IMG/VR virus record: IMGVR_UViG_3300009873_001322
Span: 3,716-67,715 of that record
Length of the DNA: 64,000 nucleotides
Source: a virus
Taxonomy: Duplodnaviria > Caudoviricetes
Direction: 5' to 3' (one strand)
Position numbers and translations under genes: made by a program. Every line of letters begins with the position of its first letter. Position 1 is the first letter of the stretch. Positions 1 through 63,229 of the stretch are shown here, one piece after another. The notes under the pieces are model-generated. The model saw only the letters and a program-made list of their open reading frames with translations, was not told where the DNA came from and did no database searches.

Positions 1-166
1 CAACATGGCATGTCAGACCGCGCCGAACCTTTTCATACCGTACCAAACCCATTCGTACCCGACCTATCCCAACCGCATCAAAACAGACCTTACCATACAT
101 TACCTGACCGTGCCGGGTCTCAGAAAGCCGCTCCCTAGCTAACCCAACCAAACCTAAGCATTTCAT
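1..166 (-). CDS. Low-complexity R/G/V pentapeptide-repeat protein, partial (runs off the window)
   Basis: ATG overlaps the RHH stop (TAATG); hand translation MKCLGLVGLARERLSETRHGQVMYGKVCFDAVGIGRVRMGLVRYEKVRRG; plus strand has ACCxxACC-type 5-nt periodicity. Confidence 0.35.
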   Translation of the reverse strand, partial: MKCLGLVGLARERLSETRHGQVMYGKVCFDAVGIGRVRMGLVRYEKVRRGLTCHV

Positions 167-303
167 TATTTATTTTCTCTGTATTCATCTATTATTCTGC
201 GTATTACCTCAGAAACGCTTACCCCAAGATGCTTTGCCCTTGTTCGCAAAAATATCATCTGTGGTCGCGTGAAAGCGACCATACGTTTTAATAAAGTATC
301 CAT
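166..303 (-). CDS. Ribbon-helix-helix (CopG-like) DNA-binding protein, 45 aa
   Basis: MDTLLKRMVAFTRPQMIFLRTRAKHLGVSVSEVIRRIIDEY has the beta-strand plus helix-G-x-S-helix RHH pattern; internal ATG of track ORF 166..375. Confidence 0.75.
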   Translation of the reverse strand: MDTLLKRMVAFTRPQMIFLRTRAKHLGVSVSEVIRRIIDEYRENK

Positions 304-334
304 GAGGTAACTATAGGTACTGCGATTTATGAAG

Positions 335-1621
335 TCAAGAATTTTTTTCCATAAACTTACCAAGTATACCGACAACGTATTCTTGCACCGGATAGCTAAT
401 GTCCTGATGGCAGCCTATCGCAAATCCACGCTGCATAATGGTGTCGCAGTTTTCCAGCGATCCAGCTATCCGATGCTCATAATGCTTTAAAGCCGGATGC
501 CTGGCCATATTCCCAGCGATAATAGGGCGTGTCTCGACGCCGTTTTCCTGCAAGAATTTGGTTATCTCTTTTACTGAGAATTTGCACCGGTCGGTTAGGG
601 TGATGCAGAACCCAAACCAGCTTGGTTCGGAGTTTTCCTGTCTTTCCTGAAAACGGAAATAGTCGCTGTATTTTTCCAGTTCGACGCGGTATTTATTATA
701 CGCCCTCCGCCGCATCCTGATGAACTCTCCTAATTTGGGGAGTTGCTTCATGCCGATTACCGCCTGCACTTCGGTCGGTCGCAAATTGTAGCCAATATTG
801 ACAAAGATGAAGCGGGGGTCGATTCTAGGGTATTGCTTTACATAGTCTTCGTGGTCGTCTGCCTCCCTGCTCCATCCGTGCGCGCGGAGAATCCGTAACA
901 GATTTACGAGTTCATGATTCTTTACGAAGCACAGGCCGCCCTCAAAGGTGGTCATGTGATGGGAATAATAGAGACTCATGGTGCCGATGTCGCCGAACGT
1001 ACCGACTGGTTTGCTGCGGAACGTCGCACCCATGCTCTCGCATGTATCTTCAATTACCCACAAGCTATGATTTTGCGCCAGGTTCATAATGATGTCCATA
1101 TCGCAGGGATTTCCATAGACATGAACTACCATGATAGCGCGAGTTTTTTGGGTTATCGCCGCTTCGAGTTTTTTGTAATCGAAATTATAGGTCGCAAGGT
1201 CGCAATCCACAAATACGGGGATAAGCCCATGCTGGATGATAGGCCATACCGATGTCGCCCAGGATAGCGCCGGGACGATTACCTCATCACCTGGCTTCAG
1301 GTGATTCATCCATGCCGGATTTGAGAGCGCTGCGATAGCGAGCAGGTTAGCCGACGATCCGGAGTTGCACATCAGGCTGTGGGCGGAACCGAAATAATCC
1401 GCGCACTGGCTCTCGAATTCACGAACCTTAGCGCCCATCGTTACTTGCGTCGTGCGCATCTGCTCGCAGGCGGCTTGGATTTCTTCTTCGCCGAAAGTGG
1501 GCTCGTGTAGGCGTACTGTCATTATGGCATCTCTCTTATTCTTCGCTTCAGCTAGCGAACGAAGATACCCATCTGGATCATTTTTATATGCTGGAATGTT
1601 TTTAAGAGCTTCGATTACCAT
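335..1621 (-). CDS. colD: PLP-dependent GDP-4-keto-6-deoxy-sugar 3-dehydratase (ColD/RfbH-like, DegT/DnrJ family)
   Basis: NSGSSANLL, VPALSWAT, EDTCES motifs; SLYYSHHMTTFEGG has His at the position where aminotransferases have the Schiff-base Lys. Confidence 0.85.
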   Translation of the reverse strand: MVIEALKNIPAYKNDPDGYLRSLAEAKNKRDAIMTVRLHEPTFGEEEIQAACEQMRTTQVTMGAKVREFESQCADYFGSAHSLMCNSGSSANLLAIAALSNPAWMNHLKPGDEVIVPALSWATSVWPIIQHGLIPVFVDCDLATYNFDYKKLEAAITQKTRAIMVVHVYGNPCDMDIIMNLAQNHSLWVIEDTCESMGATFRSKPVGTFGDIGTMSLYYSHHMTTFEGGLCFVKNHELVNLLRILRAHGWSREADDHEDYVKQYPRIDPRFIFVNIGYNLRPTEVQAVIGMKQLPKLGEFIRMRRRAYNKYRVELEKYSDYFRFQERQENSEPSWFGFCITLTDRCKFSVKEITKFLQENGVETRPIIAGNMARHPALKHYEHRIAGSLENCDTIMQRGFAIGCHQDISYPVQEYVVGILGKFMEKNS

Positions 1622-1623
1622 AC

Positions 1624-2625
1624 CTACCTCGTCAAAAATTTATTTGTTTCCACACGATCTCGCCAGTACATCATCAGATCGTTCATCGTTTGTTCAAATG
1701 GTATCTGCGGTTTCCATCCGGTGTGCTTGGTGAACTTCTCACAGTTGGGCACTTGCAAATCAGCATCAATGGGTCGCAGACGATCCGGATCTTCCTCGAT
1801 AATGAACGCCAATGGAGATAGCGACATGAGATGCCTGAGTGTGCTCTCCACGGTGCAGGTATAATCCCCGCCGATATTATAGTACGCCCCCGGAATGGGA
1901 TTTACGGTAAGCAGCATATGATACGCGCGTACGGCATCGCGCGCGTCGGCATAGGTGCGCAGAGATTTAAGGTTTCCGACTTTAATAACGGCGTCGGTCT
2001 GTCCCGCTTCGGCCATAGCTATTTGTTTGGCGAAGCTGGATTCGTGAAAAACATCGCCCCGGCGCGGGCCGGTGTGGCTAAACATGCGCGTGGTTTGCAC
2101 GTTCATCCTATAAGCCTCGGCATAAAAGCGCCCGATTAGATCGGTTCCGACTTTGGAGATGGCGTAAGGGCTGGCTGGATTTATGGGAGCATCTTCATTG
2201 ATGGGTAAGATTTCTTTTGGCACTCTGCCAAATATTTCGCTACTTGAGCACACGTGTATAATTGATTCAGGAGCGTATTGGCGTAGAGCTTCAAGTATCC
2301 GTGATGTGCCGGAAATATTTGTCTCGTAGGTATCGAGCGGAGAGGTGAAGCTCGTTTTAGGATATGACTGTGCGGCGAGGTGAAATACATAATCAGGTAA
2401 GCATTCTCGTATGGCTTGATTGATTGAATCTGAATCTCGCAAGTCCCCATAGAGCAGCCTAACACGATCACTCGCGTTGATTCGTGGCAAAAGATGCTCG
2501 ATGTTATCGAGAGGGCTTCTCCATCTGATGAGTCCATAAATCTCCCAATCCGTGTTTTCCAAAAGGTAATCGGCTAAGTGGCTTCCGACGAAGCCGGTAA
2601 TTCCAGTGATGAGGCAGCGGGTCAT
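1624..2625 (-). CDS. wcbK: GDP-heptose (GDP-mannose-type) 4,6-dehydratase, WcbK/DmhA-like SDR
   Basis: GITGFVGSHL, HLAAQSYPKTSF, SPYAISK (YxxxK), LRPIDADLQVP; closely resembles Burkholderia WcbK as recalled; start MTRCL overlaps the upstream stop (ATGA). Confidence 0.85.
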   Translation of the reverse strand: MTRCLITGITGFVGSHLADYLLENTDWEIYGLIRWRSPLDNIEHLLPRINASDRVRLLYGDLRDSDSINQAIRECLPDYVFHLAAQSYPKTSFTSPLDTYETNISGTSRILEALRQYAPESIIHVCSSSEIFGRVPKEILPINEDAPINPASPYAISKVGTDLIGRFYAEAYRMNVQTTRMFSHTGPRRGDVFHESSFAKQIAMAEAGQTDAVIKVGNLKSLRTYADARDAVRAYHMLLTVNPIPGAYYNIGGDYTCTVESTLRHLMSLSPLAFIIEEDPDRLRPIDADLQVPNCEKFTKHTGWKPQIPFEQTMNDLMMYWRDRVETNKFLTR

Positions 2626-3200
2626 TCCACCCTCTCCTTCGCTTCCTCGTACCCTTGCGGCGTACCCATGTCTGTAAACCAATCTATAATATAAAATTTC
2701 TTCTGCATCGACATGACGAATGCTTCAAAGGAGAATGCGCCTTTTGGTGCCTTATTTAGCAATTCGGGATTGATGATATAAACACCGGCGCTGGTCATGC
2801 ACCCTTTATTTTGCGTCACAGCGACCGTCAGGGGCGGTATATGATTTGCCAGCATATCGTTGAAATCACAGTTCGCATAAGTATCGCCATTTAAAACAAG
2901 CACAGGCTCATTGCCTTCGACGCAGTTCTTGATAGCCCCGCCGGTTCCCAGCGGCTTGCTCTCAATTTTATATTTTAGCTTGTCTCCGAACCATTCCGTG
3001 AACACCTCGGCCTTATAATGAAGGGCGAGCGTAATATCGGTAATGCCCTGTTTTTTTAATTGCCTTATAATTATTTCCAGCCACGGTATATCTCTCGTGC
3101 CGGGGCGAAACATTCCCTTGACCATGCACTTGGGAATTTCTTCTCCGGTTATCGAGCGAAGCCTGGTGCCGAAGCCGCCCGCGAGAATGATACACTTCAT
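2622..3200 (-). CDS. hddC: Sugar-1-phosphate nucleotidyltransferase, HddC/WcbM-like (heptose-1-P guanylyltransferase)
   Basis: IILAGGFGTRL, PKCM, PLGTGGAI, VLNGDTY, DMGTP motifs; located between gmhA and the dehydratase. Confidence 0.8.
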   Translation of the reverse strand: MKCIILAGGFGTRLRSITGEEIPKCMVKGMFRPGTRDIPWLEIIIRQLKKQGITDITLALHYKAEVFTEWFGDKLKYKIESKPLGTGGAIKNCVEGNEPVLVLNGDTYANCDFNDMLANHIPPLTVAVTQNKGCMTSAGVYIINPELLNKAPKGAFSFEAFVMSMQKKFYIIDWFTDMGTPQGYEEAKERVE

Positions 3201-3700
3201 TGCGCGAATATCCTTCTCTCAATCATTCCACAGTAAATATGTCCCATCTTCATATGGTATTCCTGTATTTCCTGCGTGTTGTCGGTATCAGCTTGAAGTA
3301 ATATGTGGCACATTCTAACCATCTTCCCTCCGGTTTTCCCGGTTTTTCCGATTACAGTAATTCCACGCGCTGCTGCTATCTCGATTGCTTTGAGAATATT
3401 CGGAGAATTGCCAGATGTTGACATGGCGATAAGCACATCGCCGCGTTTTCCCAGTGCCGTGATTTGGCGGGAAAATACATGCTCAAACCCATAATCATTT
3501 CCGATGGCGGTGAGGATTGATGTGTCGGTTGTTAATGCTATTGCGGCTAGAGGAGGTCGATCAAAATTTAATTTTCCGACAAGTTCCGCCGCCAGATGTT
3601 GCGCATCTGCTGCACTTCCACCATTGCCACAAAATAAAATTTTTCCACCTGCGAGAAGCGAATTGATGCAAGTGTTGGCAATGATGTCGGGAGTTGTCAT
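3197..3700 (-). CDS. gmhA: Phosphoheptose (sedoheptulose-7-P) isomerase
   Basis: CGNGGSAADAQHLAAEL, NDYGFEHVFSRQ, STSGNSPN, IQEYH motifs. Confidence 0.95.
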   Translation of the reverse strand: MTTPDIIANTCINSLLAGGKILFCGNGGSAADAQHLAAELVGKLNFDRPPLAAIALTTDTSILTAIGNDYGFEHVFSRQITALGKRGDVLIAMSTSGNSPNILKAIEIAAARGITVIGKTGKTGGKMVRMCHILLQADTDNTQEIQEYHMKMGHIYCGMIERRIFAQ

Positions 3701-3834
3701 CTCTTATCCATATGCTCATCTATAATTCTACGAAGAACATCTGCGATGCTTGTGCCGAGATCATCTGCTTTATTTTTTAGATATTCCATTTGTCTCCTTG
3801 TGAGAGAAAATGTGCGACGTAAGAATGCTTCCAT
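3697..3834 (-). CDS. Ribbon-helix-helix DNA-binding protein, 45 aa (below the ORF-track cutoff)
   Basis: Hand translation MEAFLRRTFSLTRRQMEYLKNKADDLGTSIADVLRRIIDEHMDKR; AAGGA RBS; stop overlaps the gmhA ATG. Confidence 0.75.
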   Translation of the reverse strand: MEAFLRRTFSLTRRQMEYLKNKADDLGTSIADVLRRIIDEHMDKR

Positions 3835-3841
3835 GTGGTTC

Positions 3842-3870
3842 CTTTAAGCACCCAACGCACTGATTGTCAA
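3842..3870 (-). promoter_or_regulatory. Putative sigma70-type promoter for the heptose cassette
   Basis: Minus strand TTGACA-N17-TTAAAG upstream of the RHH gene; -10 match is weak. Confidence 0.4.
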
Positions 3871-3976
3871 ATGCTAATCACATTTATTCCTTTACTTAAT
3901 AATTATTTTATGCGATTATTCCGTCAACGTAAGCAAAAGACTTACGAAAAAGAATTCCTGTTAAGGGAACAGTTTG

Positions 3977-4828
3977 ATGGCCGAAGAGATTGCAAATTCA
4001 ACGCCTGCCGCTCCAGCGGCCTCATCTGCAACTCCCGTGGTTGAGGCCGCTCCTACCGTCGAAGCAACCCCCGTGGTTGAACCGACAGTTACCCCTGATC
4101 CTTCCAAACCAGAATCCACTCCTTCTGCTGAACCTGTAAAAACAGAGACAGAAGAACCAGCTAAACCAGAAGCGACTCCAGAGGCAAAAGCTGAAGAGAA
4201 AAAAGCCGATACGTTGCTCGGTGGAGAAAAAAAGCCGGAGGTCAAAGCCGATGACAAACCAGCGGAAGCCAAGCCGGAAGAAACTCCATCTGAAACCAAA
4301 GAACCAGAAATTAAACTTCCTGAGTATGAGCCTTTTAAACTTCCGGAAGATGTTCGGTTCGATCAGGAAAAGATGGGTGAGTTCACTAAAGCCCTCGCCG
4401 AATTTGAAACAACGACAAAAGCATCTCACGAAGAAGTCCAAAAATTCGGTCAGGGTTTAATTGACCGCCATATCGCCGAGGTCAACAGCACTCTGGAACG
4501 CTATACCCAATCGCTTACCGATGCGTGGAATAAACAGAAAACCGATTGGAAGGATGCTTTCATTAAAGATCCGGAGTTTGCCAACCGTACCGATACCGTG
4601 GTTAATGCCGCCATTGACGCTATCGGCATTTATGGTGGTGACTCAAAGCAGCAGCAGGAATTCCGTGAATTAATGGAATCCACTGGAATTGGAAATCATC
4701 CGGCAATGATTCGTCTGCTCTCTAATATCATGCTGGCAAAAGCCGAGCCGAAACCGCTTGCGGCACCGAAAATCGCGCCGAAGGTCGGTGGTAGTAAGCT
4801 AGAAAAAATGTACGGGAGGAAAGCATGA
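3977..4828 (+). CDS. Capsid scaffolding protein
   Basis: P/E/A-rich N-terminus, WKDAFIKDPEF and GIGNHPAMIRLL motifs typical of podovirus scaffolds; upstream of major capsid. Confidence 0.8.
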   Translation: MAEEIANSTPAAPAASSATPVVEAAPTVEATPVVEPTVTPDPSKPESTPSAEPVKTETEEPAKPEATPEAKAEEKKADTLLGGEKKPEVKADDKPAEAKPEETPSETKEPEIKLPEYEPFKLPEDVRFDQEKMGEFTKALAEFETTTKASHEEVQKFGQGLIDRHIAEVNSTLERYTQSLTDAWNKQKTDWKDAFIKDPEFANRTDTVVNAAIDAIGIYGGDSKQQQEFRELMESTGIGNHPAMIRLLSNIMLAKAEPKPLAAPKIAPKVGGSKLEKMYGRKA

Positions 4829-5478
4829 GTGCTGTTCTCCAGATGGTTGAGAAGACAAAGGTTTGTAGCAAATGCAGGCAGAGTAAGTATATTTTGGAAT
4901 TTGGTAAACATAAGATCGCATCGGATGGTCTTCGCCCTTCTTGTAATGCATGCCGTCATGCCGAATACAAAGCTAGGCGCGCTGCCGCCGGTAAGACTAG
5001 AGATGAGCGTCAAACCGTTGAGCTCATCGATGGCGGGCGAGTCTGCCTGACTTGTAACGAAGGGAAAATGTGGGCTGAATTTGCCAAAGATATTCGTGGC
5101 TATAATGAGAAAACGGCGACTTGCAAAACTTGTCGTAACGTGAAGTCACGGCAAATCTATCGCGATAATCCCGCTGTTCGCCGTAGTGGCATGATCAACC
5201 GCCCAGACAAACTAAAGCGGTTGTACGGGCTGACTTACGCAGCTTTGGTCGCAATGCTGGAAAAACAGTTCGGCCTATGTGCAAACGTTGGTTGCGGAAA
5301 ATCAATATCGTTAGATGTAAAAGGGCCTGTGAAAAGCCGGGCGGTCGTAGACCATTGTCATACTACTGGGAAAGTACGGGGGCTATTATGCACGAAATGC
5401 AATCTTGATTTAGGCATGATCGAGAACGGCATTCAACGTTTTAATGGTCTGATGGGTTATTTAGGCAAACACAACTAA
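4825..5478 (+). CDS. Endonuclease VII-like homing endonuclease
   Basis: VVDHCHTTGKVRGLLCTKCN motif; N-terminal CxxC pairs; inserted between scaffold and capsid genes. Confidence 0.85.
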   Translation: MSAVLQMVEKTKVCSKCRQSKYILEFGKHKIASDGLRPSCNACRHAEYKARRAAAGKTRDERQTVELIDGGRVCLTCNEGKMWAEFAKDIRGYNEKTATCKTCRNVKSRQIYRDNPAVRRSGMINRPDKLKRLYGLTYAALVAMLEKQFGLCANVGCGKSISLDVKGPVKSRAVVDHCHTTGKVRGLLCTKCNLDLGMIENGIQRFNGLMGYLGKHN

Positions 5479-5491
5479 GGAGCTTAATTAT

Positions 5492-6544
5492 ATGGTTTTT
5501 ACAGCGAACGTGCTTCCCAATCTGGTAGATTGGGCAAAGATGCAAGATCCCGATGGCGCAATTGCTGACATTGCGGAGCTCCTTGCTCAATGCAATGAGG
5601 TAATGAAAGATATTATCTGGCAGGAAGGCAATTTGCCCACCGGCCACCGCACCTCCATCCGCGTCGGTCTGCCGCAGGGCACATGGCGCTCGGCTAACGT
5701 CGGTGTTGCTTCTACGAAGCCGCTACAAGCCCAGTTCGATATCACCATTGGCGAACTTGTTTCCTACAGCCTCGTCGATAAATCCATCGCCGTATTGAAT
5801 GGCAACGTGGATAAATTCCGCTATTCCCAGGATATGGCGCAGGTGCAGGGATTGGGTCAACAGGTTGCGACCGCCATTTTCTACTCCAATGAAGCGGTCA
5901 ACCCGGCGCAATTCACCGGATTCTTCCCTTATTATAACTCCATCTCCACCGCTACCGCCCAGAGCGCTGTGAACGTCATCGACGGTGGCGGCACTGGTAG
6001 CTCGAATGCTTCCATTCTGCTCACCGGTTGGGGTGATGATACGACCTTCATGGTATTCCCGAAAGGCTCGACCGCTGGCCTAGTCTATGAAGACAAGGGC
6101 GATGTGCGCGCGCTCTATGACAGCAACGGCAATCAGTACGAAGGCTTCACCTCGTATTTCTGCTGGAAGCTGGGTCTTTGCCCAAAGAACTGGGAGTACA
6201 ACGTCCGTATCGCCAACCTGGATACCACCAGTGCTGGCTTGGCTGGCACATCGCCGCCTGATTTGTATGTGCTGATGTCGATGGCCGCTAACAAGCTGCC
6301 GACCGCCACGCGCCGCCTGTCCGGCATTACCGAAGTGGATTCTCCGACCGATCCTTCACCTGGTATTCTGCCCGCTTGGTATTGTAACCGTACTGTGCGT
6401 ACATACCTCGACATTCAGGCTATCCGCGATAAAAACGTCCTGATTTCGATGAACGATTACGCCGGTCAGCCGGTCATGCATTTCCGCGAGATACCGATTC
6501 GCGTGAACGACGTAATGACCAATACCGAAAGCACGTTAACCTAA
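5492..6544 (+). CDS. Major capsid protein (epsilon15 gp7/BPP-1 Bbp17-like, HK97 fold)
   Basis: DWAKMQDPDG, EGNLPTGH, GLPQGTWR, IRIANLD motifs; 350 aa. Confidence 0.9.
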   Translation: MVFTANVLPNLVDWAKMQDPDGAIADIAELLAQCNEVMKDIIWQEGNLPTGHRTSIRVGLPQGTWRSANVGVASTKPLQAQFDITIGELVSYSLVDKSIAVLNGNVDKFRYSQDMAQVQGLGQQVATAIFYSNEAVNPAQFTGFFPYYNSISTATAQSAVNVIDGGGTGSSNASILLTGWGDDTTFMVFPKGSTAGLVYEDKGDVRALYDSNGNQYEGFTSYFCWKLGLCPKNWEYNVRIANLDTTSAGLAGTSPPDLYVLMSMAANKLPTATRRLSGITEVDSPTDPSPGILPAWYCNRTVRTYLDIQAIRDKNVLISMNDYAGQPVMHFREIPIRVNDVMTNTESTLT

Positions 6545-6577
6545 TGTCTGCGACATTTTACATAAGGAGTTCTGAAC

Positions 6578-7108
6578 ATGGCATTTTATGATAATTCGCT
6601 TCTGCTGTCGAATGCGCAGTCGCTCGCAGGCGCGGCGACCACGGTAATCTCGACCAGCACCTATGATATTACCGGCGCTGGTTCCGGCACTGCTCCAAGC
6701 ATGGTTTGGGGCACGAGCACATTCCTTGCCGCAGATGTCATGGTCGGACGCCCGATGTACGCCTATTTCACGGTGACAACGGCGTTCTCCGCTACCACGG
6801 CTTTAACGGTGAGAATTCAAGCTGCCGCTCCAGCTACCGGCAACGTGCCTGGCACATGGGTTAATATTTACCAGAGCGCCGCCTTTACTGGAGCCACCGA
6901 CTTGGCTGCTGCCGCTCAGTTAGTAGTTCCCATCCCGCCCAAGCCGCTTCTTGGCAGCGCATTGCCGCGTTTCTATCGGTTTGCCTATGTAAATACCACG
7001 GCGGCTACTTTCTCCGCAGGTGCGTTTACTGCCGGTATCCTGCTGGATGCGCCGACGGGCATGGTCAGCACGCTGTATCCGAGCAACTTTGTTAGCGCCA
7101 GTGCATAA
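6578..7108 (+). CDS. Capsid cement/decoration protein (Bbp16-like)
   Basis: Beta-rich 176 aa immediately after the major capsid gene; PRFYRFAYV-like motif. Confidence 0.65.
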   Translation: MAFYDNSLLLSNAQSLAGAATTVISTSTYDITGAGSGTAPSMVWGTSTFLAADVMVGRPMYAYFTVTTAFSATTALTVRIQAAAPATGNVPGTWVNIYQSAAFTGATDLAAAAQLVVPIPPKPLLGSALPRFYRFAYVNTTAATFSAGAFTAGILLDAPTGMVSTLYPSNFVSASA

Positions 7109-7124
7109 CATTTAGGAGTAAATT

Positions 7125-7637
7125 ATGAGACATAATTTCCAAAGCGATCTCTCCCCGGTTCCGCCCAAGATGTATGCGGCACCGGAAATTCCGAAGAACG
7201 TCGCATGTTATCGGATCCTGCGTCCATGCTTCCTGGATGATATCATGTTTTATGAAGGTGATGTCGTCACTTGGTCGGAGGAACCCAATAGCGAGATGGA
7301 GCCTCTCAATGATTTAGCTCGCAAAGCTAGCGATGCGTTTTTCGATAAATGCGAAGAACTGGGCAAACTGGCAGCTAAAGAAAAAGGCAAATCGTTTGTT
7401 CCGGTTCAGCGCCCCTTCTCTGAGCGCCGTAGGAATAACACCGCTGAAACTCGCCGCGTGGAACTAGTCAAGGGCGATGGAGGCGTGCCGATTATGGGCG
7501 CGCGCAAAGGCCCAGGGCGTCCTCCCAAGGCACAGAAACTTGAGGTTTCCAAGATAGAGCAGAAGCCAGTTTCTGATCTTGCCCGTACCGGCAAGGCGGC
7601 TGCCAATGCAGTGAAAGATAATAAGATTGACAGTTAA
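7125..7637 (+). CDS. Hypothetical protein (head module)
   Basis: Strong GGAG RBS; 170 aa ORF in the operon. Confidence 0.7.
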   Translation: MRHNFQSDLSPVPPKMYAAPEIPKNVACYRILRPCFLDDIMFYEGDVVTWSEEPNSEMEPLNDLARKASDAFFDKCEELGKLAAKEKGKSFVPVQRPFSERRRNNTAETRRVELVKGDGGVPIMGARKGPGRPPKAQKLEVSKIEQKPVSDLARTGKAAANAVKDNKIDS

Positions 7638-7656
7638 TTTGGTGGATGCTGCTAAA

Positions 7657-7776
7657 ATGGAAGCTAAAAAAAATAAGTTCATCAAAAAAGCTATGGTTGC
7701 GGCAAAGAAAAAGCCGAAGAAAAAGCCGATGGCCGAGCGGATGAAGTCTATGTACGGTAAGAAAAATGGCTACTAA
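7657..7776 (+). CDS. Small Lys-rich protein, 39 aa
   Basis: Hand translation MEAKKNKFIKKAMVAAKKKPKKKPMAERMKSMYGKKNGY; fills the gap and overlaps the next start. Confidence 0.55.
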   Translation: MEAKKNKFIKKAMVAAKKKPKKKPMAERMKSMYGKKNGY

Positions 7777-8125
7777 GGAAGCTAGACACAAGCGCCTGTA
7801 TAAAGACTCCCCAAAGATGGAGAGGGGCGAAGACGGCAACATGAAGGCGGTTAAACCTTCTCAGAAAAAAGGTCCGACGGAGGCCGAAAAAGAATCGGAT
7901 GAGGTACAAGCTGGCACAGACGGCATGAAGGTAACTGAGGCCGAGAGTGCTCGTATCCAGGAAATAAAGGATATGCATTCTAGGCATCAGAAGGAGATGG
8001 AGGCAATCCATAAGCGGCATCAGAAAGAAGATGTGAAGAAATACGAGAAAACCGAGCATGACAGCGATAATAATGAATCGGCTGGTGCTGGTGAAAAAGA
8101 AATAAAAGAAGCAGAAAAGGAATAG
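7766..8125 (+). CDS. Charged hypothetical protein
   Basis: 119 aa ORF in the operon, K/E-rich. Confidence 0.65.
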   Translation: MATKEARHKRLYKDSPKMERGEDGNMKAVKPSQKKGPTEAEKESDEVQAGTDGMKVTEAESARIQEIKDMHSRHQKEMEAIHKRHQKEDVKKYEKTEHDSDNNESAGAGEKEIKEAEKE

Positions 8126-8128
8126 GTT

Positions 8129-8815
8129 ATGGCTCTTGAAGGCACAGAGATTTTAGAAGTCCAAGGCATAGCCGCCAACGGGATGCCTTCTGGTCAAACC
8201 TTCCAGACGACCACTGGAGAGATTGCTGACTTAGCCTCTCTTACGAGCAACAATGAAGTAGCAACCGCTCTTAATACCGTAGGTGCTGGTACGATTACGG
8301 CTGCTGGTATCGTTGGCATGGTAACGGTTCGCGGCGGCGCGCAATTAAGTGCTGCTTTTACTGATACCACCGCTACGGCTGCTCAGATTACGGCGGCGCT
8401 TCCAGATGGTGCGGCTGTCGGGACATCTTTCCGCTGGACATATGTAAATAATACGAATGCTCCGGCTACCATCTCTGCTGGCAGCAATGTTACCGTTTCG
8501 GTGATTACGGTTGTTCCCCCTAACAGCTATGCGAAGTGGCTGGTTACGAAAGATTCGGCTACCACCTATACCTTCGTTGGCATAGAGCAGGGCTATTTTC
8601 CGCATGGTGGCACCTACACATCAATTGGCACCGCTCCGGTAACCATCTCGGATACGAATGTCACCACATATTCGCAGATTAGTTTTACGCTGCGTAGCGT
8701 TGGCGGCACCATCGTCGGCTATCCGGTTGTCACCTCAATGATACCTGGCACCAGTTTTGCCGTAAGAGCGGGTACAACCGATTTGTCCGTGTACAACTAT
8801 AACATTCTTGGTTAA
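8129..8815 (+). CDS. Thr/Ala/Ser-rich beta-structured virion protein (head decoration/fibre candidate)
   Basis: Composition and position within the head module. Confidence 0.6.
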   Translation: MALEGTEILEVQGIAANGMPSGQTFQTTTGEIADLASLTSNNEVATALNTVGAGTITAAGIVGMVTVRGGAQLSAAFTDTTATAAQITAALPDGAAVGTSFRWTYVNNTNAPATISAGSNVTVSVITVVPPNSYAKWLVTKDSATTYTFVGIEQGYFPHGGTYTSIGTAPVTISDTNVTTYSQISFTLRSVGGTIVGYPVVTSMIPGTSFAVRAGTTDLSVYNYNILG

Positions 8816-8827
8816 GTCACTTTTTGC

Positions 8828-8856
8828 TTGACGGTTCTTAAAAGCACCCATAGTAA
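8828..8856 (+). promoter_or_regulatory. Sigma70-type promoter giving a near-leaderless transcript of the first glycosyltransferase
   Basis: TTGACG-N17-TAGTAA; GTG start ~7 nt downstream; no Shine-Dalgarno. Confidence 0.5.
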
Positions 8857-8862
8857 TGGTGT

Positions 8863-9738
8863 GTGCCGAAAATCATTTGTTATATCCCTACTTACTCACC
8901 AAATATCGAAGCCGATATGGAGCATATGCGTCCCTATGTCCGGCTTACTCAGGAAGAAATTAGAGCGAGAATAGCGTCTCCTGACGCTACTGCCAAGCCA
9001 GCTATGTATATGGACGCGATTGACAGCGTTCTCAATGTGCGCCCGGATATTAAACTGGTAGTTGGCGATGGCCGAAGCACCGATTCTATCCGCGAAGAAT
9101 TAAAAAAACACCATCTTGTCAATAAGGCTATGTATGACATCATGCTGTATCCTGAGAAGATGTCGCAATGGCTTATTTTTAACGACGTATTTAAGAATTA
9201 TGCTACTGAGGAAACTGAATACTTTATCTATTCCAGTTCTGATATAATTTGGTATATGGATTGGGTAGCGGAAGCAATAAAATCCTTTGAAAAAGATCCG
9301 ACATTAAAAATACTTTTTCCTTGCGTGAACAAGGGTGATCCGAATCTTCCGTGCCAAGTCGAACCCGGACCGCGCGATTTGGATCCTATAGCCCCTCCCT
9401 TTCAGAGTTATGCCAGGGCACCGTGCCTAAATGCGTATGCCATGATATTCCGTATGGATTTCCTGAGATCTTATGGGGGGTATCCCACGTTGTTCCGTAA
9501 TTGTTTCACTGAATCATTTCTGCATTATATGTGCGAGGCCATGGGTGGTGAAATGCGGCTTTTACCGCGTGGCCATGTTTTTCATCATGGCGAGGGCGAT
9601 AAATGGACGGATAACGGTAGCCCTTATTATTACAATGAAGAGAAATTCTTATTTCACGATATAATGAACCGAGTTTTGATGTTTAAGGCCATGGGGCAAA
9701 TGACCATCGAATTTTTGAAAAAAACTTTATATAAATAG
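8863..9738 (+). CDS. GT-A fold glycosyltransferase (GT2-like)
   Basis: ICYIPTY strand, VVGDGRSTD (typical DGxSTD), FIYSSSDII at the DxD position, VFHHG C-terminal His motif. Confidence 0.7.
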   Translation: MPKIICYIPTYSPNIEADMEHMRPYVRLTQEEIRARIASPDATAKPAMYMDAIDSVLNVRPDIKLVVGDGRSTDSIREELKKHHLVNKAMYDIMLYPEKMSQWLIFNDVFKNYATEETEYFIYSSSDIIWYMDWVAEAIKSFEKDPTLKILFPCVNKGDPNLPCQVEPGPRDLDPIAPPFQSYARAPCLNAYAMIFRMDFLRSYGGYPTLFRNCFTESFLHYMCEAMGGEMRLLPRGHVFHHGEGDKWTDNGSPYYYNEEKFLFHDIMNRVLMFKAMGQMTIEFLKKTLYK

Positions 9739-9753
9739 AAAAGGAAAAAAATT

Positions 9754-10512
9754 ATGGAAGTAAATGTTTCTGATGAAATCCCCCCATCTCCTCCTAAACC
9801 AGAATCTGGTACCCCTATTGATTTTAAGGGAAGAAAGGTGGCTATTGCATTTCCCTCTCCAGATTTTATCGATACAGAGTTCCACAATTCTTTGATTCAG
9901 CTTATTACACAAACTGCGCAATTTATTCCTTTGGGGCTTACTAATGCGGTTAGTTCCAGGATTGCCGCCAATCGCAATATTATCGTAGAAAATGCTCGTC
10001 AATTAGGTGCAACCGAAATTTTATGGATAGACGCAGATTCGGTATTTCCTATTCAGTCACTCATACAGCTTTTAATGCATAACAAGGATATTGTTTGCGC
10101 CGTTACATGCCGTCGTAAAGGAAATGATCGGACACCAGTAGCTGTACCGTTAGATTTTAATTCTATAGAGCCACATCAAAAAATGGTGAAGATGAAGCAT
10201 GTAGGCTTCCCGTTTATGCTTACTAAAATGTCGGTATTCGATAAGTTGGATGAGTTGGGGTTAGCGCCTGACAAATGTTATTTTGCCGAACCTCCGCGCT
10301 GGATGATGGATAAAATTGGATGGTCGCTGCCAAGCACCGACTCATTGGTGGGGGAGGACGAATACTGGTGTCAATTGGTTCTTCGCGCTGGATTTGATAT
10401 TTGGTGCGATATGGAGCTTTCCATGCAGATTGGGCATGTCGGAAGAACAGTATTTTATATTGAAAATCAGGAACCGGTTAATGCCGCAGCCAGAGTGGAT
10501 GAAACACTTTGA
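9754..10512 (+). CDS. GT-A fold glycosyltransferase (phage GT2-like)
   Basis: IAANRNIIV, ILWIDADSVFP (DxD), GEDEYWC, IGHVG motifs. Confidence 0.8.
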   Translation: MEVNVSDEIPPSPPKPESGTPIDFKGRKVAIAFPSPDFIDTEFHNSLIQLITQTAQFIPLGLTNAVSSRIAANRNIIVENARQLGATEILWIDADSVFPIQSLIQLLMHNKDIVCAVTCRRKGNDRTPVAVPLDFNSIEPHQKMVKMKHVGFPFMLTKMSVFDKLDELGLAPDKCYFAEPPRWMMDKIGWSLPSTDSLVGEDEYWCQLVLRAGFDIWCDMELSMQIGHVGRTVFYIENQEPVNAAARVDETL

Positions 10513-11135
10513 TCATTCTTCCCACCAAAGGACGCCCACACAGCCTTGAGCGCTTCATAAAGGCGTATAATGATACCGGTGGCACTCTACCCATATGGGT
10601 TGTGCTCGACGCGAATGACGCCCACCGCTATAACGATATTGAAACCCCTTCTCATTGGCGCAGGATTTCCGTATCGGCTGGCACCAGTCTCGGCGGTATT
10701 TTTGATAAAATATTCAAGAAATACCCCGATGAATCCTATTACGGGATGGTGGCTGATGACGTGTTTCCGGAAACTAAAGGATGGGACGTAACCATGTCCA
10801 CCCTATGTCAGCCCGACAAAATCGTATGGGGATGGGACGGTATACAGAACGAAAGATTGCCGGTGCATCCATTTATCGGAGGCAATCTGGTTAGGAAATT
10901 AGGCTGGTGGGCAGCGCCGGGGCTTAAACACTGGTTCGTGGATAATGTGTGGAAAAATATTGCCGATTCCCTTGGCTGTGGAGTGTACCTCCCGGATGTG
11001 AAAATGACACATTTGCATTACGTTAATGGCGGAGCGCCTGTAGATCGCACCTATCGAGAGCAGCCTGACCATGGGGCGGATGAGCGGGCTTATTTTCAGT
11101 TTATGAAAGAGGAATTCCCTTTGATTGTAAAATAA
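10509..11135 (+). CDS. GT-A fold glycosyltransferase (phage GT2-like)
   Basis: ILPTKGRP, VVLDAND, YGMVADDVFP, HWFVDNVW, MTHLHY motifs; TTG start overlaps the upstream stop. Confidence 0.75.
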   Translation: MIILPTKGRPHSLERFIKAYNDTGGTLPIWVVLDANDAHRYNDIETPSHWRRISVSAGTSLGGIFDKIFKKYPDESYYGMVADDVFPETKGWDVTMSTLCQPDKIVWGWDGIQNERLPVHPFIGGNLVRKLGWWAAPGLKHWFVDNVWKNIADSLGCGVYLPDVKMTHLHYVNGGAPVDRTYREQPDHGADERAYFQFMKEEFPLIVK

Positions 11136-11149
11136 CTTAGTGCTATAAT
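11121..11149 (+). promoter_or_regulatory. Sigma70-type promoter for staple and tail genes
   Basis: TTGATT-N17-TATAAT with extended -10 TG. Confidence 0.6.
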
Positions 11150-11186
11150 GTCGCCAAGCTCTGCACCAAGACAGGGAGAAGACAAA

Positions 11187-11495
11187 ATGCTCAGAAAAAT
11201 GATATCTATGGCTCGTTCCGTTCAGGAACTCAATGAAGCCGCTAATCCATCTCCAATTACTATGTCCCGTTATCCGTGGGGGCTGTCTCTCCGATTCGAT
11301 CAAGAAACGCTTGATAAGCTCAGTCTCGATACTTCCGATGTTGAGGTCGGTGATATGCTACACATGGTTTGTATGGCCGAAGTCACATCTGTTTCAAAAC
11401 ATGATTCCGGTGACGGAGCCAAGTGCTGCGTAGAGCTTACGCTGACGCATATTGGGCTTGAGAACGAGAATACCGAGTATCTTGAGGCTGAATAA
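11187..11495 (+). CDS. Capsid staple protein (epsilon15 gp10-like)
   Basis: YPWGLSLRFDQETLDKL, VGDMLHMVCMAEV pattern; start after GGGAG RBS. Confidence 0.65.
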   Translation: MLRKMISMARSVQELNEAANPSPITMSRYPWGLSLRFDQETLDKLSLDTSDVEVGDMLHMVCMAEVTSVSKHDSGDGAKCCVELTLTHIGLENENTEYLEAE

Positions 11496-11520
11496 GCAGC
11501 TTCTGATAAAGGAGTTGTAA

Positions 11521-12309
11521 ATGGCTACCGGCACCAGTTTGAATATTATCAACCGATCACTTTTAGCGATCGGCTCCCAAGCCCAGGTTTCCTCCCTCAA
11601 TGAAGGCTCTGCGCAAGCCAATGCAGCAGCCACTCTTTATACGCCAACATTTGAACAATTAGCCCGCTCCGCGCCTTGGAATTGCTTACGAAAGGAAGCG
11701 ACTCTGACTCTTCTTGCTGCTGCTGAGGGTACGCCGGAAAATCCCGACGGAGAAACGCTGCCGCTGCCGCCGGTGCCGTGGCTATATCAATACCAGCTTC
11801 CCTCCGATTGTTTGCAGATGCGGTTTATCGTGCCGTCGCTTCCATCGCCAACTGGCGGCGTTCCGCTATTCTCGGTCAACACGGGTGCCCCAACATGGCT
11901 ACCGAACCAAGGACAGATTCCCTATGTGGTTGCTTACGCAACCGATGCTTCCAACAATCCGGTAAGCGTTATTCTTACCAATCAATCATCTGCGATTGCG
12001 GTTTATACCGTGAACCAGCCTAATCCACAGTTCTGGGACTCCCTGTTTCAAGCAGCAATGGTCGCCTCTTTAGCAGCCTATTTCGTGCCTGCCCTTTCCC
12101 TGCATATGCCGTTGATGGACAGGCAGGTAAAACTCGCCGAAGAGATGATACAGCAAGCGAGGGTTAGGGATGGCAACGAGGGCGTCACCTCCATGGATCA
12201 TGTTCCAGATTGGTTGAGGGCGAGGCAAGGGGCCAGCGGAGCCTATTGGCGGAATGGTTACAATGGGGCTGGGTATAATTATCCGAACATGCTCTGGCCG
12301 TCATACTAG
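11521..12309 (+). CDS. Tail tubular protein A / head-tail adaptor
   Basis: IINRSLLAIG, APWNC, YQLPSDCL, AMVASLAAY pattern of the T7 gp11-like family. Confidence 0.85.
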   Translation: MATGTSLNIINRSLLAIGSQAQVSSLNEGSAQANAAATLYTPTFEQLARSAPWNCLRKEATLTLLAAAEGTPENPDGETLPLPPVPWLYQYQLPSDCLQMRFIVPSLPSPTGGVPLFSVNTGAPTWLPNQGQIPYVVAYATDASNNPVSVILTNQSSAIAVYTVNQPNPQFWDSLFQAAMVASLAAYFVPALSLHMPLMDRQVKLAEEMIQQARVRDGNEGVTSMDHVPDWLRARQGASGAYWRNGYNGAGYNYPNMLWPSY

Positions 12310-12321
12310 AAGAGGCAGGAA

Positions 12322-15300
12322 ATGGCGTTCTCTTCGATGCAGCATGGGTTTTCGGCGGGGGAATTCTCTCCGCGCCTATTTGGCCGCAACGATTTAGCCA
12401 AATATGCCATGGGCTGCTCGACTCTCCGCAACTTTTTTGTTGATTATCGGGGTGGGGCATCTTCGCGCGCCGGATGCGCCTATATAGGGATGTGCAAACA
12501 GGGAGCACCAAATAGCGGCGGCACAGCAACCGACAATCCTCCGCGCGATATTCCGTTCCAGTTTAATATCAGCCAAGGGTACGCACTGGAGTTTGGCGAT
12601 GAGTACATGCGCATTAAATCCAATGGTGCATACGTCACCGAAACTGGAAAAAATATAAGTGCTGCGACAGTGGCAAATCCACTCGTTCTCACGATTACTG
12701 CGCACGGCTTCATCAATGGCGATTGGGTTTATATTTCCGGCATGGAAGGGATGACGGAAATCAATGGCCTGACATGGATTGTCGCAGGTGCGGCGACCAA
12801 TACGATCCAGGTGACGAGTTTATTTGATGTTACGGTGAATTCCGCCAACTTCTCGACTTATACGACGGGGGGTACGGCAGCCAGAATCTACACCGTTGAC
12901 GCTCCCTATGCGGCCATTGATTTGCCTTTCGTGAAATACACGCAATCCGCCGATACGATGACGCTGACCTGCGTGAATCAGGATAGCAATACCGAATACC
13001 CATCTTATCAACTTGTGCGGCAAGGGGCAACGGATTGGGTTTTCACGGAAGACTCTTTCGCGTCTTCCGTCAGCGCCCCCACGGCGGTAGCGGTTACGGC
13101 CAATAGCTCGGCGGCAACGACGACTTTTTATAGCTATGTCGTTACGTCAGTAAGCGGGCTTACTGGCGAGGAGAGCGTGGCATCGACGCCTGCCACGGTA
13201 AAAAATAATGATATATCAGTTAATGCCGGTTCCAATGTTATTACATGGACGGGGACTACGGCGGCCACCAGCTATAATATATATTCGGCCATTCCTTCTT
13301 ATAATGCAGCGGTGCCCGTGGGATCGTCATTCGGCTATCTAGGAACGGCGTTTGGCAATCAATTTGTCGATACCAATATTGTCGCGGATTTTACAACGGT
13401 ACCGCCGGTTCATAAAAATCCATTCGCTCGCGGGACTATAGTATCTGTCACTCCTACCAATACCGGAGGCAGTTATACTCAAACTAATGTGGGATACAAT
13501 ATAACCACATCGACCGGTTCCGGGGCGGTAATCGCTCCAGTTGTTACCAACGGAAATGTGGTGGGATATATCGTTCAAAACGGAGGGATGGATTACGTCG
13601 CCAGCGACACCATCACCATTACCAGCAGCGGTTCTGGGCACGATGCAACTGCTATTCTGAATATCGGCCCGCAGAGCGGAACATACCCAGGGACATGTGC
13701 GTATTTCCAACAAAGGCGAGCCTACGCTTTTACGCTGAACCAGCCGGACACTTATTTCATGAGCCAGCCAGGGGCATTCAATAATATGGATTCCTCCATC
13801 CCCACCACTGCTTCTGACTCTATTATCGGCTCTCCCTGGGCGCAGCAAATAAACGGCATACAATTTCTGGTTCCGATGCCTGGTGGTCTGGTTATTCTTA
13901 CCGGTGAGGGGGCATGGCAATTGAGCGGCGGAGGGCAGAATGCGGCTTTAACGCCAATCGATCAGCAAGCAACGCCGCAAGCCTACAATGGTTGCCATTT
14001 CCACATTCCACCGATTGTCGTCAATTATGACATTCTTTATGTGCAGTCCAAGGGAAGCATTGTCCGGGATTTAGCCTATAACTTCTTTGTCAATATTTAC
14101 ACCGGCACGGATATGACGGTGCTTTCCAATCACCTTTTCGACTTCCATCAGCTTCAGCAATGGGACTATGCGGAAGAACCGTTCAAGATTGTTTGGGCAA
14201 CCAGAGATGACGGCGTGATGTTATCGCTTACTTATTTAAAAGAGCAGGACGTTTACGGCTGGGCGCGGCATGATACCAATGGTCTATTCATCGGAGTGTG
14301 CTCGGTGACATATGTCATTACGCGCAGGTATATTGAGGGTGAGGGCGAATGGGTTTATTATTCCGAGCGCATGGATGACCGCAATTGGCTGACTGTAGAG
14401 GATTGTTTTTGTGTGGATGCGGGGCTTTCATTGCCTCTCACGTTCCCTAACGCCATTCTTACGCCAGCCGCCGCGAATGGAACCAACAATATATCGGATC
14501 TTAATATAATTATTGGCGGCAGCGGTTATGTTGCGCCGACTATTCTGGCGTCCGATCCGACCGGACAAGGAACCGGATTTATCGCCACGGTTTCTGTCAC
14601 CGGTGGGGTAATCACGGGATATACAATTACAGATGAGGGCACAAATTATCAGCCGGGAACGGAGATTGTTATTTCCGACTCCACCGGTTCGGGCGCTAAA
14701 ATCGCCCCTATCATAACCAATAATGTGACATTCACCACATCCGCCAGCGTGTTTACCTCTGATAACGAAGGTGATGTCATCCGTATCGGACATAATAACG
14801 TAAGCCCAAGCGGGACTTTTTCCATAACACCGAACGGCGGCGGTAAGGCGGTAATTACGGATTATGTTTCCGGAACGGAAGTGGTTGCCAACATCATCGA
14901 ACCCATCACCAATATCCTTCCCAACGATCCGAATGACACGCCCATTCCGGTGAACCCGGATTACTGGTCACTTTCCACGCCCGTCACCTCCATTAGCGGG
15001 CTGAATCATCTGGAAGGAATGGAAGTGGCTATTCTCGCCGACGGCAGCGTGGTGGCTAACCAGGTGGTTGAGGATGGGGCAATTGAACTCCCCGCTCCGT
15101 ATTCCTCCGTGACCATCGGACTGCCGTTTACCGCGCAGTTGCAAACGCTTTATCTCGATCCGCCATCGTCGATGACGACGCAGGGGAAAAGAAAAAACAT
15201 TCAGGCTGTGACGGTACGAGTACAGAATAGCAGAGGATTATTTGTCGGGACTAACCAACCAGATGCTTCCACGCAGCCTAACGGGCAGACCCCGGAATGG

Positions 15301-15501
15301 ACGGGGCTATATGAGATGAAACAGAGAAATGTAACGCAACCCCCAGGTTCGGCCATTCCGCTTTATACCGGAGATTTACGGGAATTGGTAGGTGGTTCGT
15401 GGCAAAAGCCTGGGCAGATCGCCATTCAATCGCAATTCCCAATCGGATTAAACATACTTGCCATCATCCCTGAATGGCAGATCGGCGATACGCCTGGATA
15501 G
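12322..15501 (+). CDS. Tail tubular protein B / nozzle with FCCH-like inserts
   Basis: FSAGEFSPRL, YFQQRRAY, GWARHDT, GLPFTAQLQTL motifs; 1059 aa. Confidence 0.9.
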   Translation: MAFSSMQHGFSAGEFSPRLFGRNDLAKYAMGCSTLRNFFVDYRGGASSRAGCAYIGMCKQGAPNSGGTATDNPPRDIPFQFNISQGYALEFGDEYMRIKSNGAYVTETGKNISAATVANPLVLTITAHGFINGDWVYISGMEGMTEINGLTWIVAGAATNTIQVTSLFDVTVNSANFSTYTTGGTAARIYTVDAPYAAIDLPFVKYTQSADTMTLTCVNQDSNTEYPSYQLVRQGATDWVFTEDSFASSVSAPTAVAVTANSSAATTTFYSYVVTSVSGLTGEESVASTPATVKNNDISVNAGSNVITWTGTTAATSYNIYSAIPSYNAAVPVGSSFGYLGTAFGNQFVDTNIVADFTTVPPVHKNPFARGTIVSVTPTNTGGSYTQTNVGYNITTSTGSGAVIAPVVTNGNVVGYIVQNGGMDYVASDTITITSSGSGHDATAILNIGPQSGTYPGTCAYFQQRRAYAFTLNQPDTYFMSQPGAFNNMDSSIPTTASDSIIGSPWAQQINGIQFLVPMPGGLVILTGEGAWQLSGGGQNAALTPIDQQATPQAYNGCHFHIPPIVVNYDILYVQSKGSIVRDLAYNFFVNIYTGTDMTVLSNHLFDFHQLQQWDYAEEPFKIVWATRDDGVMLSLTYLKEQDVYGWARHDTNGLFIGVCSVTYVITRRYIEGEGEWVYYSERMDDRNWLTVEDCFCVDAGLSLPLTFPNAILTPAAANGTNNISDLNIIIGGSGYVAPTILASDPTGQGTGFIATVSVTGGVITGYTITDEGTNYQPGTEIVISDSTGSGAKIAPIITNNVTFTTSASVFTSDNEGDVIRIGHNNVSPSGTFSITPNGGGKAVITDYVSGTEVVANIIEPITNILPNDPNDTPIPVNPDYWSLSTPVTSISGLNHLEGMEVAILADGSVVANQVVEDGAIELPAPYSSVTIGLPFTAQLQTLYLDPPSSMTTQGKRKNIQAVTVRVQNSRGLFVGTNQPDASTQPNGQTPEWTGLYEMKQRNVTQPPGSAIPLYTGDLRELVGGSWQKPGQIAIQSQFPIGLNILAIIPEWQIGDTPG

Positions 15502-15505
15502 AATT

Positions 15506-16000: not shown

Positions 16001-16001
16001 T

Positions 16002-53540: not shown

Positions 53541-53669
53541 TCCGCGAGCAGGCGACATTGCGGCTGCCGGGCAGCACGGAGATACCGCTCATCGCATTCG
53601 ACGACTGGCGGTTCTGGGTATTGCTTGCGGTTATCATCGGCGCGGCGTTCGCGTGGAAGAGGATGTGAA

Positions 53670-63189: not shown

Positions 63190-63229
63190 TTAGTTAATTT
63201 AACACTAGACTTCTCGTAACGTCCTCCAA

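Follow-up and report, generated by a model that had tools for sequence, protein, structure and literature searches.

The DNA analyzed here (the window, 64,000 nucleotides) corresponds to bases 3716–67715 of the single-contig IMG/VR record IMGVR_UViG_3300009873_001322, which is 67,715 bp long and has a CheckV completeness of 97%. At window positions 335–3834, five genes lie head to tail on the minus strand, and their products are predicted to carry out the first half of a pathway to a rare activated heptose. The first gene of this operon, read directly from the sequence, encodes a 45-aa ribbon-helix-helix (RHH)-like protein (3697–3834) whose homologue stands in the same place in two other phage contigs, L085 and L086 (53–60% identical). 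It is followed by genes for a 167-aa GmhA-like sedoheptulose-7-phosphate isomerase (3197–3700; identified with Pfam SIS_2, NCBIfam, and PDB 2XBL), a compact 192-aa HddC-like sugar-1-phosphate nucleotidyltransferase (NT; 2622–3200; NCBIfam HddC and PDB 5XHW/6JQ8), a 333-aa nucleoside diphosphate (NDP)-heptose 4,6-dehydratase of the DmhA/WcbK type, which is a short-chain dehydrogenase/reductase (SDR; 1624–2625; PDB 7US5), and a 428-aa pyridoxal/pyridoxamine phosphate (PLP/PMP)-dependent sugar C3-dehydrase of the DegT family in which the Schiff-base Lys is replaced by His (335–1621). The initial annotation had described the last four genes as joined by ATGA overlaps with a 2-nt gap before the PLP gene, and direct reading of the junctions bears this out: GmhA/NT (gcgcaATGAagtg) and NT/dehydratase (gtggaATGAccc) are ATGA overlaps, and the dehydratase and PLP genes are separated by a 2-nt spacer (gagGTAGgtATGg). 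The TGA stop of the RHH gene forms a further ATGA overlap with the gmhA ATG, the true start of the dehydratase is the ATG at 2625 and not the TTG at 2682, and each start in the operon is preceded by a purine-rich Shine-Dalgarno-like motif. Since the coupled order GmhA–NT–dehydratase–3-dehydrase recurs in the phage contig L086 and in a bacterial locus, L007, we regard this arrangement as a conserved operon rather than a product of chance.

The family placement of each enzyme was then compared with the chemistry expected of it. The GmhA-like protein matches Pfam SIS_2 (E 1.9e-26) and the Burkholderia pseudomallei GmhA structure 2XBL (205 bits), and it is nearer to GmhA models (194–203 bits) than to DiaA (141 bits). 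In the 2XBL alignment, four residues (His, Glu, Gln, and His) that we take to form the metal-binding and catalytic site of the B. pseudomallei enzyme are identical. By sequence, the phage SIS protein is a genuine homologue of GmhA. The best NCBIfam model for the NT is HddC and its best PDB match is the Yersinia pseudotuberculosis HddC (5XHW/6JQ8); it contains the motifs GGxGTRL, PLGTGGA, and NGD, and its homologues in L085 and L086 are 53–60% identical. The dehydratase aligns with 7US5, the Campylobacter jejuni GDP-D-glycero-D-manno-heptose 4,6-dehydratase, at 328 bits (E 4.6e-97), as opposed to approximately 120–138 bits for GDP-mannose dehydratases (GMDs). It carries the catalytic motifs SSSE and YAISK of an extended SDR, and its bacterial and phage homologues are 66–78% identical. 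Of all the single results, its affinity to 7US5 speaks most strongly for heptose over mannose as the predicted substrate.

The PLP enzyme matches Pfam DegT_DnrJ_EryC1 (E 3.4e-91), and its highest structural scores are with E1 (3BCX, 287 bits) and ColD (2GMS, 281 bits), compared with at most 185 bits for aminotransferases. The first His of its SLYYSHH motif (H221) falls opposite E1 His220, which the H220K structure 3BB8 replaces by Lys. In an alignment of its clade (A1), S216, Y218, S220, H221, and H222 are invariant and Y219 is nearly so, giving the motif SxYYSHH. The Cys-rich insert of E1, which holds the Fe–S cysteines, is a gap in the phage enzyme, and we reject an E1-type, Fe–S- and E3-dependent chemistry on this ground; no E3-like reductase gene was noticed in the record, in which no search aimed at E3 was made. 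The score with the RfbH model (385 bits) is below its cut-off of 423, which leaves the enzyme outside the E1/RfbH family. It looks like a 3-dehydrase with ColD-type chemistry that lacks Fe–S. The initial annotation had called it a His-type ColD enzyme; the His for Lys replacement and the placement of a His-type 3-dehydrase after the 4,6-dehydratase hold, and ColD orthology does not (281 versus 287 bits). By this comparison it is not a ColD orthologue but falls in a clade of its own, about as far from ColD as from E1; what brings it nearer to ColD is only the missing Fe–S cysteine insert.

Further sugar genes are located elsewhere in the phage. The initial annotation noted that the HddA kinase was absent from the window and might lie upstream, and this is where it was found. 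In the 3.7 kb of the record that precede the window (L001), a gene for a 348-aa GHMP kinase, for which HddA is the best model, occupies genome positions 1628–2674, 1.0–2.1 kb upstream of window position 1. Together with GmhA, the HddC-like NT, and the 7US5-like dehydratase, it supports the earlier view that the substrate is a heptose rather than mannose. Next to the kinase gene is one for a 218-aa protein similar to the E1alpha subunit of pyruvate dehydrogenase (PDH), a thiamine diphosphate (ThDP) enzyme (L001 973–1626). The gene for the matching E1beta is present in two parts, a 5′ part at genome 612–1031 and a 3′ part at window 62935–63191 on the minus strand; joined across a 92-bp repeat described below, they form an intact 194-aa open reading frame (ORF) that is 66–81% identical to E1beta of the phage loci L002–L004, L085, and L086. 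These ThDP subunits retain only the PP and Pyr domains, and each is about 200 aa long. The mini E1alpha retains the ThDP motif (GDM...EDN versus GDG...ENN), and the mini E1beta retains the activating, catalytic Glu (AEN). The mini E1alpha family is largely phage-borne: its Atlas clusters are 80–95% viral, and some of their members, of about 400 aa, have alpha and beta fused into a single chain. A transketolase role for the pair, in the supply of sedoheptulose-7-phosphate, was considered and rejected in view of the PDH-E1 homology and the position of the bacterial genes directly upstream of the 3-dehydrase.

Two SDR genes lie on the plus strand between the terminase and portal genes. SDR_A (56153–57085) is an Fcl/GalE-like extended SDR with a YFGVxxTK motif, and SDR_B (57251–58231) is similar to GDP-fucose synthase, lacks the canonical Tyr, and has a FAGWAK motif. 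FAGWAK and YFGVxxTK are invariant in 35 and 41 homologues, respectively, so both proteins appear to represent specialized families rather than decayed copies. SDR_A is co-located with the 3-dehydrase in most of the bacterial loci considered below. HNH endonuclease genes at 55141–55947 and 58697–59458 flank this pair, and an endonuclease-VII-like gene (4825–5478) lies between the scaffold and major head protein genes; the scattering of the sugar genes may be explained by such homing-type nucleases. Three tandem genes for candidate GT-A (GT2-like) glycosyltransferases (GTs) are found on the plus strand at 8863–11135, within the head–tail module, and the first of them (GT1) is 51% identical to a gene beside the sugar cluster in L002 and L003. 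GT1 also resembles viral GT2 clusters in the Atlas, which we note as a lead only. Just before the three genes, a 228-aa protein (8129–8815) has a C-terminal K1-lyase_C domain (28.4 bits, cut-off 27).

The terminase (53625–55109), portal (59854–61686), major head protein (MCP; 5492–6544), and large tail protein (12322–15501) identify a tailed phage. Its portal shares only about 35% identity with the portals of isolated podoviruses, SPN1S among them, and a nucleotide search of window positions 1–12000 against isolated phages gave no match. The source is an uncultured, environmental, podovirus-like tailed phage of approximately 66 kb. The 92-bp direct repeat is exact, and its copies, at genome 612–703 and 66815–66906 (window 63100–63191), both lie inside the E1beta gene. 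To the left (genome 1–611) is a VWA_CoxE gene fragment with a G+C content of 60–69%, and to the right (window 63192–64000) is an unrelated DUF2334 fragment with a G+C content of about 48%. The record is more likely a circular phage assembly of approximately 66.2 kb with foreign sequence joined to both ends, in which the two repeat copies mark the circular join, and the repeat may otherwise be a true att duplication. An integrated prophage whose operon was split by integration was rejected, since the record contains no tyrosine integrase, the flanks are unlike each other, the repeat falls within E1beta, and the gene order is uninterrupted in L085 and L086. On the circle, the genes run RHH–GmhA–NT–dehydratase–3-dehydrase, then the kinase, then E1alpha–E1beta, between the scaffold/head genes and the portal.

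The 3-dehydrase and kinase genes are parted by another RHH paralogue of 45 aa that comes immediately after the cassette on the minus strand (166–303; weak match to Pfam RHH_1, E 0.001), and by adjacent ORFs of 79 and 207 aa (genome 3040–3881). No second RHH copy or counterpart of these ORFs was detected in the same interval of L085 and L086, and the segment therefore looks like a later insertion. A promoter-like candidate site is present at 338–310, before this second RHH gene; a promoter scan gave 7 matches compared with 7.1 in shuffled sequence, and of the two candidate sites noted, we claim neither as a promoter.

L085 and L086 are true relatives of the phage, with MCPs 89–91% identical and, in L086, a portal 71% identical. 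In both, the five operon genes, the kinase, E1alpha, and E1beta form one contiguous block located between the MCP and the portal, and the genes are packed as tightly as here; in L086, neighboring genes overlap twice by 4 nt and once by 14 nt and are once separated by 3 nt. Three unrelated phage loci (L002–L004) share only the sugar genes (dehydratase, 3-dehydrase, E1alpha/beta, kinase, SDR_A, SDR_B, and GT1; 50–72% identity), which indicates that the sugar module moves between phage backbones. E1alpha/beta is operonic with the 3-dehydrase in all five of these other phage loci.

We also scanned bacteria, using one genome per prokaryote species; 80 loci were returned, and their gene content was taken from tblastn matrices. 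Two architectures were found. In the first, the genes are grouped as kinase / GmhA–NT–dehydratase / 3-dehydrase–SDR_A–SDR_B, in Rickettsiales-type, Alphaproteobacteria, Legionellales/Coxiellaceae, and Gammaproteobacteria metagenome-assembled genomes (MAGs). Four such loci (L006, L007, L010, and L012) have the order GmhA–NT–dehydratase–3-dehydrase–SDR_A, followed by SDR_B in L006 and L007, and these last two keep the phage order with 62–75% identity for every enzyme except the NT. In the second, represented by approximately 28 loci from Alpha- and Gammaproteobacteria, Nitrospiraceae, Verrucomicrobia, Marinimicrobia, and Prochlorococcus MIT 0603, full-size E1alpha–E1beta genes lie directly upstream of, and co-directional with, 3-dehydrase–dehydratase. 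The L007 locus (3019–19586), from an uncultured Rickettsiales MAG, additionally holds an ArnT-like PMT_2 enzyme of the GT-C type, a DedA/VTT protein between the SDRs, full-size E1alpha/E1beta, and an IMPase-family phosphatase that could be a substitute for GmhB. The ArnT-like PMT_2, DedA/VTT, and IMPase-family genes suggest that the bacterial product is an envelope glycan. Taken together, these results indicate that the phage operon is most likely a bacterium-derived, horizontally acquired, translationally coupled unit that encodes the first half of a phage-borne pathway to a rare activated heptose.

Building on the gene content, order, overlaps, family placement, catalytic motifs, and synteny observed above, we propose the following route, in which activities, nucleotide, branching, and acceptor are predicted by homology and synteny. 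GmhA would convert sedoheptulose-7-phosphate to D-glycero-D-manno-heptose-7-phosphate, the HddA-like GHMP kinase would phosphorylate C1, a host phosphatase (GmhB or an equivalent) would take off the 7-phosphate, and the compact HddC-like NT would form an NDP-heptose, probably the GDP derivative. The DmhA-type SDR would turn this into NDP-6-deoxy-4-keto-heptose, from which the His-type PLP/PMP enzyme would remove the 3-OH in the manner of ColD, with neither Fe–S nor E3, to give NDP-3,6-dideoxy-4-keto-heptose. The mini E1alpha/beta would most likely attach a two-carbon acyl group at C4, in the way that YerE or AviB1/B2 act on 4-keto sugars; the two atypical Fcl-like SDRs would reduce or epimerize the product; and the GT2-like enzymes would transfer the sugar to an acceptor, for which virion proteins are our favored guess. 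A GDP carrier is likely, because the affinities to HddC, 7US5, and Fcl agree. A branched heptose is the most economical reading because a 4-keto-3,6-dideoxy product fits the precedents for ThDP-dependent branching and because the genes are tightly linked. On balance, we consider it probable that the coupled operon provides the first half of a rare activated-heptose pathway and that branching and transfer steps follow. The fuller proposal, that the phage and widespread bacteria make a previously undescribed sugar, a 3,6-dideoxy-heptose with an acetyl or hydroxyethyl branch at C4 (a heptose counterpart of yersiniose), using a minimal two-subunit PDH-E1-like ThDP enzyme, and that the phage glycosylates its own virion with it, is put forward by analogy and is tentative.

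Several observations weigh against this interpretation. All four operon enzymes score below the NCBIfam equivalog cut-offs, including the GmhA-like protein with the phosphoheptose isomerase model (202.7 bits, cut-off 276) and the NT with HddC (101 bits, cut-off 300). The GmhA-like protein lacks approximately 28 N-terminal residues, and with them the N-terminal helix, that are present in its closest bacterial orthologues (L006 and L007); its alignment starts at residue 36 of 2XBL, and at 167 aa it is shorter than the full-length architecture (about 190–200 aa). The short form is probably functional, since it is conserved in L086 (168 aa). The NT has an internal deletion of approximately 30 residues relative to Y. 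pseudotuberculosis HddC and shares only 27–38% identity with its counterparts in the bacterial clusters. In place of an HddC-like NT, L002 and L003 encode a 141-aa protein resembling RfaE domain II, a cytidylyltransferase-like protein (11185–11610), so the nucleotide may not be GDP and may differ among phages whose pathways are otherwise homologous. As the initial annotation had stated, GmhB is absent from the window; the upstream check was also negative, and searches for GmhB and the IMPase family across the whole 67.7 kb record found no 7-phosphatase, which must then come from the host. About 25 bacterial loci of the kinase–3-dehydrase–SDR_A–SDR_B type have neither the dehydratase nor E1alpha/beta within 10 kb, and thus the ThDP step is not universal. 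Lastly, the Pfam GT2/Anp1 matches of the candidate GTs are weak and sub-threshold, and a virion-protein acceptor is suggested by the location of the GT genes in the structural module, a guess from gene position.

The foremost alternative is that the pathway ends in plain GDP-3,6-dideoxy-heptose after reduction at C4 by an Fcl-like SDR, as in C. jejuni HS:5/HS:11, and that the ThDP enzyme serves another purpose. Fcl-type enzymes can both epimerize and reduce 4-keto sugars, and many bacterial loci consist of the 3-dehydrase, SDR_A, and SDR_B with no E1alpha/beta within 10 kb. The succession of a dehydratase and a 3-dehydrase also matches the C. jejuni logic (PMC10440746). However, a separate purpose for the ThDP enzyme sits poorly with the gene arrangement, since E1alpha/beta is part of the sugar operon in all five of the other phage loci and immediately precedes the 3-dehydrase in approximately 28 bacterial ones; moreover, the active-site motifs of both SDRs are non-canonical and invariant, and no cupin-type C3/C5 epimerase like that of C. 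jejuni was seen. We therefore judge this ending unlikely, if clearly the best placed of the alternatives. GDP-3,6-dideoxy-heptose is also the product named in the initial annotation, which our analysis upholds as far as a 3,6-dideoxy-4-keto stage, with the GDP moiety inferred. Because the four genes stop at the 4-keto stage, and the ThDP pair and the SDRs are linked to the 3-dehydrase, the end product is probably not a plain 3,6-dideoxyheptose of the C. jejuni type.

The other alternatives fare worse. A colitose-like pathway from GDP-mannose, in which GmhA and the kinase would merely boost the supply of heptose for the host lipopolysaccharide (LPS) core, recalls the cyanophages S-CAM7 and ACG-2014f, which carry GMD together with a 3-dehydrase 37% identical to the one described here, and DmhA/WcbK-type enzymes have some GDP-mannose activity in vitro. 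Yet the dehydratase is far nearer to 7US5 than to any GMD, GmhA, NT, and dehydratase are coupled in one operon whose order is kept in bacteria, and no ManB or ManC homologue was seen, all of which make this pathway quite improbable. Slightly less probable again is hypermodification of the phage DNA by the sugar nucleotide, as in arabinosyl-hydroxymethylcytosine phages with SIS-domain and nucleotidyltransferase genes; a recent report ties phage “phosphoheptose isomerases” to DNA arabinosylation (10.64898/2026.03.26.713887, citing Mahler et al. 2025), but the SIS protein here is a bona fide GmhA homologue, and the bacterial clusters with ArnT-like GT-C and DedA genes point to an envelope glycan. 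A DNA target is also unlikely because no gene of the thymidylate synthase/dCMP hydroxymethylase family was found in the record. The notion that the PLP enzyme is a C4 aminotransferase, which would yield a 4-amino-4,6-dideoxy-heptose, draws on the predominance of aminotransferases in Pfam DegT_DnrJ_EryC1 and is very improbable, given the clade-invariant His aligned with E1 His220 in place of Lys and the two known 3-dehydrases at the top of its structural relatives.

If the branched-heptose pathway is correct, at least 10 phage genes (gmhA, kinase, NT, dehydratase, 3-dehydrase, two ThDP subunits, two SDRs, and candidate GTs) would be devoted to making a rare sugar from central metabolism and transferring it, far more than the lone sugar gene that most reports of auxiliary genes describe. 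The pay-off for the phage could be decoration of the virion, a change of the host surface, or something else. The initial annotation further pointed to heptose intermediates as innate-immune agonists, a relevance that finds no support here, given an environmental phage and a sugar of the GDP-alpha-heptose type. The comparison also brings to light a conserved bacterial gene set, apparently uncharacterized, for a heptose 4,6-dehydratase, a distinct His-type 3-dehydrase, a PDH-like ThDP enzyme, and two atypical SDRs. It is found in Alpha- and Gammaproteobacteria, Legionellales/Coxiellaceae-type MAGs, Nitrospiraceae, Verrucomicrobia, and Prochlorococcus, and it is directly testable with the GDP-heptose substrates and assays that exist for the C. 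jejuni enzymes. The cut-down ThDP subunits may be of use as small carboligases. In the literature that we searched, this set of a heptose dehydratase, a 3-dehydrase of this clade, a ThDP E1alpha/beta pair, and the two unusual SDRs appears to be undescribed, as does its distribution over phages and many uncultured bacteria.

Individual parts of the pathway resemble known systems. In C. jejuni HS:5/HS:11, a GDP-heptose 4,6-dehydratase, represented by the nearest solved relative 7US5, is likewise followed by a PLP-dependent His-type C3-dehydratase, and the route leads from GDP-heptose through the 6-deoxy-4-keto to the 3,6-dideoxy-4-keto intermediate (PMC10440746). The C. jejuni C3-dehydratases are ColD orthologues (62–67% identical to ColD; PMC10440746), whereas the enzyme here belongs to a separate clade and the system is carried by a phage. 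C. jejuni goes on with an epimerase and a C4-reductase, and the phage has two atypical Fcl-like SDRs and a ThDP pair. ColD (GDP-colitose) and E1/RfbH (CDP-ascarylose) share with it the DegT fold and the His for Lys replacement, and ColD is also without Fe–S cysteines; its presumed heptose substrate differs from theirs. YerE consists of a single ThDP-dependent chain and differs from the PDH-E1 type, which sets it apart from the phage pair. ThDP enzymes branch 4-keto-3,6-dideoxy sugars at C4, with NAD(P)H-dependent reduction afterward, in the yersiniose, erwiniose, and caryophyllose routes, and the yersiniose substrate is CDP-3,6-dideoxy-4-keto-glucose (PMC9306805). Compared with yersiniose A (YerE/YerF) and the acyl-branching enzymes ErwE/MyGE (PMC9306805), the phage differs in having a minimal PDH-E1 enzyme split into alpha and beta subunits that would act on a heptose, probably GDP- and not CDP-linked. 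A further parallel is offered by AviB1/AviB2 and Pau11/Pau12, two-subunit PDH-E1-like ThDP enzymes within deoxysugar clusters that have been proposed to form the C4 acetyl branches of antibiotic sugars (PMC4753412). The phage pair has the ThDP motif, the catalytic Glu, and the location in a 4-keto-deoxysugar cluster that mark this class, and by analogy it may be a carboligase; it differs in that its subunits are minimal, about 200 aa each.

Phage-borne nucleotide-sugar genes are themselves not new, because isolated cyanomyoviruses carry annotated heptose genes and others carry GMD with a 3-dehydrase. Islands of the cyanomyoviruses SynMITS9220M01 and Bellamy contain gmhA, a D,D-heptose 7-phosphate kinase, nucleotidyltransferases, GTs, and a dehydratase 50–51% identical to the one described here, and have been interpreted only as LPS-related auxiliary genes (PMC7378029). 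In Synechococcus phage SynMITS9220M01 (L113, 148121–167140), these are gmhA, a heptose kinase, two nucleotidyltransferases, phosphatases, three GTs, and a dehydratase 50% identical. In contrast to our locus, the 19 kb island that was examined has no annotated 3-dehydrase or E1alpha/beta, and the virus family and host are different. Mycobacteriophages with glycosylated virions are similar in that GT genes lie in the structural module, where the candidate GT genes of the phage described here are also found. They use sugar nucleotides of the host, whereas the phage described here encodes a sugar pathway of its own.

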